From: Opitutus sp. GAS368
GTDB lineage: Bacteria; Verrucomicrobiota; Verrucomicrobiia; Opitutales; Opitutaceae
Assembly: GCA_945861645.1 (NCBI GenBank)
Contig: CAMAVZ010000005.1
Span: forward strand, 15,200-79,199
Direction of reading: 5' to 3'
Length of the DNA: 64,000 nucleotides
Positions 13,715-15,751 of the stretch are shown here, piece after piece (within the stretch, counting starts at the first letter, position 1; each line of letters opens with the position of its first letter). A program made the translations under genes and the position numbers. The notes beneath the pieces were generated by a model, which saw only the letters and a program-made list of their open reading frames with translations, was not told the DNA's origin and made no database searches.

Positions 13715-15751
13715 ATGTCCCGCCTAAAGTTTAACCTCGAAAAAACCTGCCCGAACTCGCGCGCGCGGGCGGCTACTTTTCAAACCCTGCATGGTCCCGT
13801 GCAAACGCCGGTCTTTATGCCAGTGGGCACCCAAGCAACCGTCAAAGCCCAGACCGTTGAGACGATGAAGGCAACCGGGGCATCGGTGCTCTTGGCGAAT
13901 ACTTATCACTTGCTTCTCCGCCCCGGTCCGGAGGTTTTTAAAAAATTTGGTGGCATTCATCGCTTCATGCACTGGGACGGCCCTGTGCTGACGGATTCGG
14001 GCGGTTTTCAAATATTTTCCCTGCCCGCAGAACGGGCCATGAAAGAGGAGGGCGCGCGTTTCCAGAGTTACGTGAACGGTGACCTCTACCTGCTCTCACC
14101 TGAATCGAGCATCGAGATGCAGCAGACCATTGGCAGCGATATTATGATGGTGTTGGACCAATGCATTCCCTCCACCGCGCCTTATGCGCAAGCGGCAGCC
14201 GCCATGGAACTCACCCACCGCTGGGCGCAACGCTCTTTAGTCGCTCGAGGCGATTCACCGGCAGCGCTCTTCGGGATTGTCCAAGGCGCGTGTCACCACG
14301 ATCTCCGCAAGAAGAGCGCGGCCTTTCTGCGCGACCTGCCCTTTGACGGTCTGGCCATCGGCGGCCTAGCCGTGGGCGAAACCCACGCAGAACGTTATGA
14401 ATTTACCGGAGCGGTCACCGATGAATTACCTAAAAACCTCCCGCGCTACTTAATGGGCGTCGGTACGCCGATCGATATTCTCGAAGCGGTGCACCGTGGA
14501 GTAGACATGTTCGATTGCATCATTCCAGGCCAACTCGCCCAGCGCGGCGTGGCGTTCACCGCCCGCGGCAAGGTTCAACTCCGCCGCCTCACCCATAAAC
14601 TGGCGGAGGCGCCGCTCGAAGCCGGTTGCGCTTGCGCCACTTGTCAAAATTACTCCCGCGCTTACCTCCACCATCTGGTCAAAGCTGACGAAATGCTCGG
14701 GTGGCATTTACTCGGAATTCATAATTTTGCTTTTTATCATCGGCTGATGCGCGAGATGCGCACCGCTATTCTGCGCGACGAATTCTTGGCTTTTTACGAA
14801 AACAACCGGCTACAACTCGGTCGCAGTGACGAAGAAAATGTTATTCACCCGGTAAAAAAGCGCGGATTAGCCCGAGCTAAACATCTGGGCGACTATGACA
14901 TTGTGACTGGTCCAGCTGGCTACTCGAGCATCCGGCAAATTAGCTCGGGTGAAGTGATGCACTCCGTGAATCGGCCGAGCGATGAGGCCCAGAAACTTTA
15001 CGTAGAGCAATCGGGCTTAGCCGCACGCCTATTAAAACAACCGGGCGCCGAAGCGGAACTCATTATCTGGGATGTCGGGCTCGGTGCGGCCTCCAATGCT
15101 ATGGCGGCGTTAGGGTGTTTTGAAAAAGTATTAGCGGAACAAGGGACCGCGGCCCTCCGACCCATGCGGATTATCAGTTTTGAAATTGATCTTGATCCAT
15201 TGAAACTCGCGGCGAAATTCGCCAGCCATTTTCCCCATCTGCGCCACGGCGCCCCGCAGGCAATTTTAGAAGAGGGTCGCTGGGCCCATCCCTCTGGTAT
15301 GCTGGAATGGGAACTATGCTCAGGTGATTTTTTAACTTTTCTCGAATCAGCAAAAGCCCCTGATGATATTTACTATGATCCCTTTTCCGCTAAAACGGAT
15401 ACGGCCCTTTGGACAACCGAGGTCTTTAGCCGCCTCCGTCTGCATTGCGGGCTAAAATCAGCCGCTCTTTATACGTACTCATCCGCTACGGCCGTTCGCG
15501 TCGCTCTCCTCGCCGCCGGTTTTTTTGTCGCGCCTGGCGTTGGCACGGGCCCCAAAGCGGATACCACGCTCGCCTTCACGCAGTTCGCTGGCGCGCTCGA
15601 TCACCCGAGCCAGCCTCAGCTTCTTGGGGCGGAATGGCTAGGACGCTGGCGGCGCAGCATCTCAAAATCTCCCGCCAACCTCACTGAAAGTGAGCGGGCT
15701 TTTTTTGAGCAGCGCATTGAGGTCCACCCCCAGTTTAAGGGAGTCTGTTAA
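13715..15751 (+). CDS. tgt: tRNA-guanine(34) transglycosylase fused to C-terminal MnmC-type SAM methyltransferase domain
   Basis: N-term: [60 protein letters not shown]-term: [27 protein letters not shown]...LWT, YTYSS..AVR..L..AGF. Confidence 0.93.

Follow-up and report, generated by a model that had tools for sequence, protein, structure and literature searches.

Of the hypermodifications of the wobble base, the two best known are queuosine and mnm5s2U, and the pathways to them are thought to be essentially mapped. The methyltransferase domain MnmC2 methylates the aminomethyl (CH2-NH2) group of a nucleobase, according to the accessible part of PMC3648344. In E. coli MnmC its partner is the FAD domain MnmC1, whereas the partner of the related domain considered here is a tRNA-guanine transglycosylase (Tgt). 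MnmC1-MnmM (DAO plus PF06962) is likewise a fused solution for terminal aminomethyl methylation at position 34, but its methyltransferase belongs to another fold family, no Tgt is involved, and its FAD oxidase partner makes the substrate of the methyltransferase. The joining of a Tgt to MnmC2 has itself been listed before: a 2023 bioRxiv preprint, 'Alternate routes to mnm5s2U synthesis in Gram-positive bacteria' (10.1101/2023.12.21.572861), gives one sentence in its accessible text to TGT-MnmC2 fusions (COG0343/PF01702 plus MnmC2), the same architecture as that described below. They stand there among four kinds of MnmC2 fusion, including those with the unrelated partners YhdJ and MqnD, with no function, tree or analysis of paralogues given for the Tgt fusion in that text.

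A second relevant precedent comes from phage DNA, where a DpdA-type transglycosylase inserts preQ1 and DpdM then yields 7-(methylamino)methyl-7-deazaguanine (dPreQ1 to mdPreQ1; PMC10516641, accessible part). The product chemistry is that proposed for the fusion; the differences are that the substrate is DNA and that DpdM, as described in the same part of that paper, is a DUF3109 metal-binding protein with a CxxxCxxCC motif, unrelated to Methyltransf_30. The fused transglycosylase is of the tRNA type, whereas DpdA is a DNA enzyme. A Pfam search of the fused ORF gave no DUF3109 domain, and homology of its C-domain to the preQ1 methyltransferase DpdM is ruled out for want of such a match. A literature search found no report of N-methyl-preQ1 in tRNA.

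The gene at issue lies in a window of 64,000 nucleotides from Opitutus sp. GAS368, the whole stretch of DNA that was analysed. From the letters alone the initial annotation had suggested that its product may insert preQ1 and cap it by N-methylation instead of passing it to QueA and QueG. The reading we put first, tentatively and somewhat short of calling it probable, is that both domains act on the same nucleotide in a coupled side pathway that would lead to N-methyl-preQ1, or a similar base, beside ordinary queuosine.

One reading frame, two domains

The ORF, of 678 aa with an ATG start, occupies 13715..15751 with the stop codon included, on the + strand, as are all features of the window given below except queC and queE. 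Residues 1 to ~370 (13715..14824) are a bacterial-type tRNA-guanine transglycosylase paralogue (PF01702, TIGR00430), here Tgt2, and residues 385-678 (14867..15748) are, by PF05430 and predicted structure, an MnmC2-like SAM-dependent methyltransferase domain. The interdomain linker, residues 375-386 (14837..14872), falls within a Lys/Arg-rich stretch and is predicted to be disordered (AlphaFold2 pLDDT <50). That a single frame of this length has a Tgt N-terminus and an MnmC-type methyltransferase C-terminus, as the initial annotation had read it, is borne out by Pfam and NCBIfam profiles, and the profile search with TGT and Methyltransf_30 that it had proposed recovered both domains: TGT (PF01702) over residues 16-363 (E 5e-142, 473.6 bits against a cut-off of 26.3) and Methyltransf_30 over residues 513-621 (E 1.9e-12, 47.6 bits against 22). 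The NCBIfam Tgt model TIGR00430 scores 441.1 bits, above its cut-off of 306.75; that for MnmC2, NF033855, scores 66.3 bits over residues 412-620, below its cut-off of 136.

Could the junction be an artefact of assembly or gene calling in which two adjoining genes were merged? The source assembly (G000) is a MAG in 116 contigs and 84% complete, and such fragmentation would favour the idea. However, the fused frame is uninterrupted in the single-contig genomes G128 and G162, and both Pfam domains are present in 120/120 homologues among the matches listed, an Oleiharenicola lentus record included. A scan of genome contigs gave 563 related loci, and in 77 of the best 80 of these Tgt sequence lies in frame upstream of the methyltransferase. 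Fused frames were likewise recovered in the genus, family, class and phylum genome samples. With the same frame across so many assemblies an artefact is ruled out, its probability being vanishingly small, and the junction, which the initial annotation had thought worth checking in related genomes, is real.

Of 71 genomes from the family Opitutaceae, 18 have the fusion. Other families of Verrucomicrobiota have it as well, and so do MAGs that bear the labels Binatia, Riflebacteria, Thermodesulfobacteriota and Oligoflexia. Among 301 genomes of the phylum, Tgt2-type matches (identity at least 63%) and methyltransferase matches were confined to one and the same set of 12 genomes, where every frame is 677-733 aa long, and no unfused Tgt2 was found at that identity. 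The company the gene keeps is unremarkable: 22 loci from diverse taxa gave no conserved que or mnm neighbourhood, its neighbours being unrelated transporters, hydrolases and the like, and neither these loci nor the window had defence-system or phage neighbours. Around stand-alone relatives of the methyltransferase, ten Verrucomicrobial loci showed one adjacency to a Tgt (in G014, of canonical type in the Tgt tree), one position ~2 kb from mnmG (G072) and nothing else.

An additional transglycosylase

Tgt2 matches solved Z. mobilis Tgt chains over its full length (E ~1e-107), and its catalytic, pocket and zinc residues are identical to those of bacterial tRNA-guanine(34) transglycosylase (Z. 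mobilis, E. coli; TIGR00430, PF01702); each of the motifs DSGGFQ, LDQC, GGLAVGE, MFDC and CxCxxC..H that had been picked out by eye is present. Alignment to PDB chains equates Asp94 (13994..13996), in TDSGGFQ, with the catalytic Asp102 of Z. mobilis Tgt and Asp267 (14513..14515), in MFDC, with the nucleophile Asp280. Alignment to the Z. mobilis enzyme also gives the zinc-site cysteines C305, C307 and C310 (CxCxxC, 14627..14644) and the fourth ligand, His336 (14720..14722). Not one of 45 fused proteins, with identity down to 44%, departs from D102, D156, C158, Q203, GGLAVGE, M260, D280 or the Zn ligands (Z. mobilis numbering), and TIGR00430 scores are 385-451 bits in six of six diverse fused proteins. 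Such strict conservation of the catalytic Asp pair, the 7-deazaguanine pocket and the zinc site is not expected of a mere binding module, and judged by these residues the fused Tgt looks catalytically active.

The same residues bear on the suggestion that Tgt2 may no longer exchange tRNA bases, having become a base-flipping module that binds an anticodon loop or hairpin and brings the methyltransferase to its target, or that the enzyme may act on rRNA, an mRNA hairpin or DNA. A canonical Tgt is nearly always present for the ordinary job (47/48, see below), and E. coli Tgt acts on minimal UGU hairpins outside tRNA, as stated in the accessible parts of PMC13416341 and PMC1635277. Yet both catalytic aspartates, the pocket and the zinc site are strict in all 45 proteins, the six profile scores are of the bacterial tRNA type and not DpdA-like, and defence-system and phage neighbours are lacking at the loci inspected; we regard a Tgt2 retired from base exchange in tRNA as improbable.

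What sets Tgt2 apart from the usual bacterial Tgt is an altered loop, its status as an extra copy, its separate clade and the 300-aa C-terminal methyltransferase. The loop, residues 271-278 (14525..14548), reads PGQLAQRG where the canonical form is PTR(286)xxR(289)NG, so that both arginines are lost. In canonical Tgt we take R286 and R289 to be RNA-contacting residues. Arg286 is described as lying near the pocket. In alignment, Arg286 occurs in 0/26 fused and 30/31 canonical Tgts, and Arg289 in 0/26 and 31/31; among the 77 fused loci from the best 80 of 563, there is an Arg at 286 in none and at 289 in one. Further changes specific to the clade are V282I, G69A, E157Q, P162T and N290 to R or Q.

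In a quick tree with 30 stand-alone Verrucomicrobial Tgts and that of E. coli, the fused Tgt domains (26/26) group together in a single clade, separate from the stand-alone enzymes (SH-aLRT 100). Of 48 further genomes with the fusion, 47 encode a stand-alone Tgt in addition (21/21, 16/17, 5/5 and 5/5, the last being MAGs labelled as other phyla); in the source genome, with its 84%-complete assembly, the fused copy alone was found. By phylogeny and gene content Tgt2 is a dedicated paralogue clade, extra to the canonical Tgt, and not the housekeeping orthologue.

The methyltransferase and its altered loop

The methyltransferase motifs noticed at the outset, DVGLG..N, SFE, YYDPFS..W and TYS..VR..AGF, are each in place. 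The AlphaFold2 model of the domain has a pLDDT of 95.4, and each of its top nine Foldseek matches is an MnmC or an MnmC2 (E 1e-14 to 6e-11), the closest structures being the E. coli MnmC2 domain 2qy6 and Aquifex MnmC2 3vyw; spermidine synthases rank after these (E 1e-7). Against MnmC2 of E. coli (2qy6, 3ps9, 3awi) and the stand-alone enzyme of Aquifex aeolicus (3vyw) the Foldseek E is 1e-14 to 1e-12, the TM is up to 0.76 and the order of motifs is the same, but identity is just 19-23%, and peculiar to the fused domain are an N-terminal GE.MH motif and a family-specific C-terminal extension, W..RW.RS..HPQF (W..RW.RS...P...HPQF). Sequence E is ~1e-3 to both solved MnmC2s, and NF033855 scores are 33-94 bits in 20/20 relatives, fused and stand-alone, all below the cut-off. 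In weighing the coupled pathway, that the domain is only a distant MnmC2 relative was counted for it, and that its nearest family by both sequence and fold is the uridine-acting MnmC2 was counted against.

The SAM-binding motif DVGLGAASN, residues 453-461 (15071..15097), is the equivalent of the G66-G70 loop of E. coli MnmC, and this loop (DVGLG) is kept along with the equivalents of E101 (SFE) and D178 (D555); the roles of the SAM-binding and catalytic residues are those given in the accessible part of PMC3648344, where that stated for P182 is SAM binding. The catalytic-Asp loop, residues 555-566 (15377..15412), corresponds to D178-GFAPAKNPDM-W189. Its Asp and Trp (D178 and W189 equivalents) are invariant, and between them P182-A-K184-N185-P186 is replaced by A-K-T-D-T. 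The P-x-K-N-P loop is common to E. coli, Aquifex and Verrucomicrobial stand-alone forms and is altered in the fused clade: P182 is retained in 4/26 fused against 10/11 stand-alone Verrucomicrobial forms, K184 in 0/26 against 11/11, N185 in 5/26 against 11/11 and P186 in 5/26 against 11/11. We infer that the loop following the catalytic Asp shapes the substrate pocket. By alignment the methyltransferase retains its SAM-binding and catalytic residues, with an altered substrate loop.

The stand-alone relatives, of 265-340 aa, span the entire methyltransferase region and in 4/5 cases sit in single-Tgt genomes. In the methyltransferase tree, which is effectively unrooted with an E. coli MnmC2 branch of ~8 substitutions per site, 19 stand-alone representatives (genes or fragments) fall inside the fused clade. 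Two fusion-bearing genomes, G025 and G473, also have stand-alone MnmC2-like genes, so that there the fused copy is not simply the sole MnmC2.

The full-length AlphaFold2 model has a pTM of 0.58, against 0.93 for the C-domain alone, and shows no confident fixed packing between Tgt2 and the methyltransferase. The lack of confident packing, of a que or mnm neighbourhood and, in the literature searched, of any report of N-methyl-preQ1 in tRNA, and the occurrence of stand-alone relatives in single-Tgt genomes, were counted against the coupled pathway.

Queuosine and mnm5 pathway genes

Both genes for preQ0 synthesis that the initial annotation had placed in the window are there, queC at 1522..2448 and queE at 768..1616, each on the - strand; they lie 11 kb upstream of the fusion and share no operon with it. 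It had also noted that queA, queG and queF are missing from the window, which is correct, yet all three are elsewhere in the same genome. QueA is present in 70 of 71 family genomes, the source genome included, and in five of five fusion-bearing genomes from two other families; QueG is in four of five genomes checked, including all four with the fusion, and the source genome has it. With queC and queE in the window and QueF found in the source genome, a supply of preQ1 exists. The idea that preQ1 is capped 'instead of' being passed to QueA and QueG did not survive: both are present in the genome, which rules out their replacement by the fusion, and in relatives a housekeeping Tgt stands beside it. 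The presence of QueA and QueG implies that ordinary queuosine is made and would draw on the preQ1-tRNA that the fusion needs, a point against the coupled pathway.

The substrate of canonical MnmC2 can exist too, MnmE and MnmG being encoded by an adjacent pair in the source genome (G000 C6:70367-71683 and 71749-73578). This is one ground for supposing two independent activities on one chain, the C-domain being the organism's MnmC2 and the N-domain a second Tgt with an unrelated specialised role. The former would methylate the nm5(s2)U34 made by the MnmEG ammonium route, as in Aquifex aeolicus, a route that needs neither MnmC1 nor MnmL (above cut-off in 0/5 and 0/5); the latter might serve a different set of tRNAs or a base obtained by salvage, and the fusion would merely co-express or co-localise two anticodon-loop enzymes. 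The initial annotation had offered two unrelated position-34 activities as its alternative, and with MnmE and MnmG present and no other MnmC2 or MnmM it stays nearly as likely as the coupled pathway, a serious contender that we stop short of thinking probable.

Several results agree with it. In Foldseek E-value the MnmC2 fold leads by roughly six orders of magnitude, the E101, D178 and glycine-loop equivalents are kept, a flexible linker and a low pTM are in keeping with independent domains, and the preprint, in its accessible part, files the TGT fusion under MnmC2 fusions (10.1101/2023.12.21.572861); with YhdJ and MqnD among the other partners there, MnmC2-like domains are promiscuous in fusion. 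No second Methyltransf_30/MnmC2 and no MnmM was found in the source genome; MnmM is absent from all 23 fusion-bearing genomes tested (0/18 in the family), and a second Methyltransf_30 is absent from 26 of 28 tested, the family being 18/18. MnmM occurs in 11 of 53 fusion-negative family genomes, and in the 2 of those 11 that were checked it is a DAO+MnmM (MnmC1-MnmM) fusion. Among the 71 family genomes the 18 with the Tgt fusion and the 11 with the MnmM type show zero co-occurrence, an alternation that looks like functional replacement. In the weighing of the coupled pathway, the lack of MnmM, the mostly missing second Methyltransf_30, the presence of MnmE and MnmG and this alternation were entered on the negative side.

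Against two independent activities, however, chance alone would give that 18 and 11 non-overlap with a probability of ~0.03 (hand calculation, before allowing for shared ancestry), and both MnmM and Methyltransf_30 are missing from 42 of the 53 family genomes that have no fusion; lacking both is the family norm, so that a missing alternative enzyme says little. The C-domain scores below the NCBI MnmC2 cut-off, the fused clade departs from the substrate loop that E. coli and Aquifex have in common with the stand-alone clade of Verrucomicrobia, and G025 and G473 have stand-alone MnmC2-like genes as well. A separate reason would also be needed for an active Tgt paralogue that is never without the methyltransferase and never replaces the housekeeping Tgt (47/48).

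A proposed coupled side pathway

It is these features of Tgt2, a dedicated clade, always extra (47/48), never unfused and with both substrate loops of the protein changed, that strengthen the idea of a single substrate for both domains. The N-methyl-preQ1 proposal thus stands in part: an active-looking Tgt with an MnmC2-type fold in a conserved fusion agrees with it, and the replacement of queuosine has gone. As to substrate and product, we infer the following for the coupled pathway. Tgt2 would exchange a guanine of tRNA for preQ1 (7-aminomethyl-7-deazaguanine), either at the usual G34 of tRNAs with GUN anticodons or at a guanine set in another sequence context, and the tethered methyltransferase would then methylate the CH2-NH2 to give 7-(methylaminomethyl)-7-deazaguanosine. 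Alternatively, methylation of free preQ1 might come before its insertion. The stand-alone Tgt, QueA and QueG would keep making queuosine in parallel.

Implications

The architecture was already listed in the 2023 preprint; the separate paralogue clade with its co-occurring housekeeping Tgt, the presence of the usual queuosine and mnm5 routes and the altered loops are points that had escaped the initial annotation. The gene is widespread (563 related loci) and joins what by its residues is an active-looking extra transglycosylase to an aminomethyl methyltransferase. If its C-domain is a plain MnmC2, it would close the gap at the end of mnm5s2U synthesis in these lineages; an alternative outcome would be a Tgt paralogue recruited for another purpose. 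If the coupled pathway is true, a new 7-deazaguanine derivative would be present in cellular RNA, by a chemistry otherwise known from phage DNA and an unrelated enzyme. In its specific form, which we judge possible and somewhat doubtful, the fusion would make an undescribed RNA nucleoside, N-methyl-preQ1, at G34 or, via a changed phosphate-35 pocket, in a new guanine context, and Opitutaceae, along with MAGs labelled as several other phyla, would have a second, horizontally mobile 7-deazaguanine branch beside queuosine.

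The fused frame and its recurrence

The fusion is a single ORF of 678 aa (13715..15751, + strand) in which Pfam matches both TGT (residues 16-363, E 5e-142) and Methyltransf_30 (residues 513-621, E 1.9e-12), and which contains every motif that the initial annotation had listed. Its N-terminal part passes the NCBIfam equivalog model for bacterial Tgt (441 bits, cut-off 306.75), while its C-terminal part reaches 66 bits with the MnmC2 domain model, under the cut-off of 136. In the source assembly, a 2.3-Mb MAG (116 contigs, 84% complete), it is the sole match to TGT and the sole match to Methyltransf_30. 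A full-length model (mean pLDDT 88.6, pTM 0.58) has well folded domains and a linker, 375-386, with pLDDT below 50; in it the domains resemble a pair of beads joined by a basic string, a layout that would fit either hand-over of RNA from one to the other or independent action.

That Tgt is joined here to an MnmC-type methyltransferase is confirmed by Pfam, NCBIfam, the motifs and recurrence in relatives. The suspicion of an assembly artefact, with a junction absent from related genomes, is rejected since the same fused frame is widespread: it recurs in homologues, in the organism's own family, in other families and in the phylum sample. Both Pfam domains are present in 120 of 120 homologues of the C-terminal region among the matches listed, which are annotated as Tgt of Opitutae, Opitutaceae, Lacunisphaera, Oleiharenicola lentus, Nibricoccus and Rariglobus. 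The fusion is in 18 of 71 genomes of the family (source genome included) and 12 of 301 of the phylum sample, and two further families of the same class have fused frames too. A one-genome-per-species scan gave 563 related loci, the best 80 of which comprise 74 complete fused frames, 3 fusions interrupted by a contig end, one 390-aa frame in which just the zinc-site portion of Tgt remains, and 2 undecidable cases; among these 80 are MAGs labelled Binatia, Riflebacteria, Thermodesulfobacteriota, Deltaproteobacteria and Oligoflexia. One sentence of 10.1101/2023.12.21.572861 names MnmC2 fusions with TGT (COG0343, PF01702) beside those with YhdJ, MqnD and YtqA, without assigning a function to the one with TGT. 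No other paper treating the fusion was found in the literature searched; the architecture has already been noted in print, but without analysis.

An extra Tgt paralogue

The chief point beyond the initial annotation is that the fused Tgt domain, here called Tgt2, is an extra paralogue. An ordinary stand-alone Tgt of ~390 aa, 43-49% identical to the fused domain, accompanies the fusion in nearly all genomes: in 21 of 21 relatives, 16 of 17 genomes of the family (the exception, G188, is 84% complete), 5/5 from two other families of the class and 5/5 MAGs labelled as other phyla, or 47 of the 48 fusion-bearing genomes in the four samples. The source genome has the fused copy only, and since its two closest relatives (fusions 97% and 94% identical) hold both, the stand-alone gene is likely missing through incompleteness of the assembly. 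A quick maximum-likelihood tree was built from 57 sequences (26 fused, 30 stand-alone Verrucomicrobial, and E. coli Tgt). Its 26 fused domains make up a single clade, set apart by a long branch (SH-aLRT 100) from the stand-alone Verrucomicrobial Tgts, with which that of E. coli groups. Within the phylum sample Tgt2-type sequences (identity at least 63%) are confined to fused frames, and the genomes that have them are precisely the 12 with the methyltransferase.

Aligned to the solved Z. mobilis Tgt, whose numbering is used, Tgt2 retains Asp102, Asp156, Cys158, Gln203, GGLAVGE, Met260, Asp280 and the zinc ligands. None of these residues varies among the 45 fused proteins compared, the most divergent being 44% identical, which argues that selection maintains transglycosylase activity and a preQ1-type pocket in them. 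Scored against the 30 Verrucomicrobial Tgts and those of E. coli and Z. mobilis, Tgt2 differs elsewhere: Arg286 and Arg289, which we take to be RNA backbone contacts, are each in 0 of 26 fused sequences, Asn290 is replaced by Arg or Gln, Val282 by Ile (25/26), Gly69 by Ala (24/26), Glu157 mostly by Gln, and Pro162 by Thr (24/26). We infer that RNA binding near nucleotide 35 is altered. We consider it improbable that Tgt2 has its target, for binding or for catalysis, away from the usual tRNA sites.

The stand-alone Tgts of 19 genomes of the same order (L019-L037) have peculiarities of their own. They have lost the zinc-site cysteines (CxCxxC becoming, for example, L-D-N-Y-T-C, with His alone kept) and have GGVSVGE in place of GGLAVGE, while retaining the PTRVARNG loop and both kinds of feature needed for catalysis at the Asp positions; a housekeeping Tgt lacking the zinc site is unusual.

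The methyltransferase domain

The C-terminal 294 residues of the fusion are equivalent to an entire family of stand-alone proteins (265-340 aa), and a representative search with this domain gave 1446 matches at E <=1e-3 and 225 at E <=1e-30, fused and stand-alone. The MnmC2 model scores 33-94 bits with 20 of 20 tested members, all under cut-off, and the two solved MnmC2s are matched by sequence at E ~1e-3 only. The nine best PDB neighbours of an AlphaFold2 model of the domain (pLDDT 95.4, pTM 0.93) are MnmC/MnmC2 of E. coli, Y. pestis and Aquifex (E 1e-14 to 6e-11), with spermidine synthases next at 1e-7. Equivalents of the glycine loop, Glu101 and Asp178 of E. coli MnmC, with roles as described in the relevant part of PMC3648344, are retained. 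The loop after Asp178 (DGFAPAKNPDMW in E. coli) is another matter: the Verrucomicrobial stand-alone clade keeps its P, K/R, N and P in 10, 11, 11 and 11 of 11 sequences, whereas fused forms keep them in just 4, 0, 5 and 5 of 26, the source protein's loop being changed also. A tree of this domain has a clade of 44 sequences that unites 25 of the 26 fused domains with 19 stand-alone representatives (some perhaps fragments); Verrucomicrobial stand-alone methyltransferases form a separate clade.

Queuosine genes and gene neighbourhood

The initial annotation envisaged preQ1 being capped instead of passing to QueA and QueG. Both are in the source genome (QueA as a partial gene at a contig end), as are QueF, queC, queE and an adjacent mnmE-mnmG pair, and all but one of the 71 family genomes have QueA, as do 5/5 fusion-bearing genomes of two other families. 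With the ordinary queuosine and mnm5 genes present the proposed wobble pathway therefore fails as a replacement; it is partly supported, as a possible branch parallel to queuosine.

Gene order is uninformative on function. queC and queE are 11 kb from the fusion, whose neighbours are a RimL-like acetyltransferase and, directly upstream (8788-13536, +), a 1582-aa pyruvate:ferredoxin oxidoreductase-like ORF (TIGR02176 351 bits, far under the cut-off of 911, and ~400 aa beyond model length); unrelated genes flank the fusion at 22 other loci. RNA and ribosome modification genes (RlmB-like, RlmD, RlmN, MiaB, PrmB) are at 6361-8572, 24775-25935, 28872-30359 and 57721-58626, and none adjoins the fusion at the 22 loci in distant relatives. 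In G014, which has two Tgt genes, each of canonical type in the tree, a stand-alone MnmC2-like gene (L015:5256-7388) lies divergently beside a Tgt gene, followed by a MiaB-like gene.

Elsewhere in the window cumulative GC skew has its minimum at ~30-36 kb and G+C falls to 0.46 at 34-36 kb, beside dnaN (34708..35832, -), with rnpA, yidD and yidC at 59558-62257; a chromosomal origin is probably within the window. An OleC-like gene of the fatty-acid CoA ligase/beta-lactone synthetase family adjoins an OleD-like reductase (3630-6364, +), the olefin pathway models being matched below threshold, and a 1222-aa SNF2-family helicase (38620-42288, -) has sub-threshold matches to defence helicases (ZorD, DrmD) and SCO1167-type helicases.

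Two activities, or one pathway?

Is the methyltransferase simply an MnmC2 modifying nm5(s2)U34, independent of a specialised Tgt on the same chain? We put it somewhat below even, only slightly behind the coupled pathway discussed below. In the family sample each of the 18 fusion-bearing genomes has a single Methyltransf_30 domain, the one within the fused protein, and no other genome has any. MnmM is present in 11 of the others and in 0 of those 18, nor was it found in the five MAGs that carry labels of other phyla. This leaves 42 family genomes with neither. In both genomes checked of the 11 (L135:547-2193 in G217; L136:675-2321 in G171) MnmM is part of a 548-aa protein that joins a DAO-type FAD oxidoreductase to a methyltransferase of MnmM type (PF06962), likely an MnmC analogue; the MnmM matches in all 11 are of similar frame size. 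Neither MnmC1 nor MnmL was found above cut-offs in five genomes, so that an independent MnmC2 would rely on the ammonium route of MnmEG, a combination reported for Aquifex in a passage of 10.1101/2023.12.21.572861. Against it, fusion-bearing G025 and G473 hold stand-alone MnmC2-like genes as well (L038:1024-1938, on a 4.7-kb contig for which bin contamination is possible; G473:C62 and C60), and the G025 copy falls in the canonical-motif clade. An independent MnmC2 accounts for the methyltransferase, but it would leave without explanation a seemingly active Tgt paralogue that was never found alone and never substitutes for the housekeeping Tgt.

Insertion of preQ1 in tRNA by Tgt2, followed by its N-methylation by the tethered domain, would cover both of those features with one idea, and would fit the changed contact loops of both domains. 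We favour it tentatively, as a prospect not quite even. Such a pathway must coexist with QueA, and its predicted product would be N-methyl-preQ1, which is known solely from phage DNA, made there by the unrelated DpdM (PMC10516641); no report of it in tRNA was found in the literature searched. The paralogue pattern together with the loop changes makes the fusion a well-posed and cheap experimental question.
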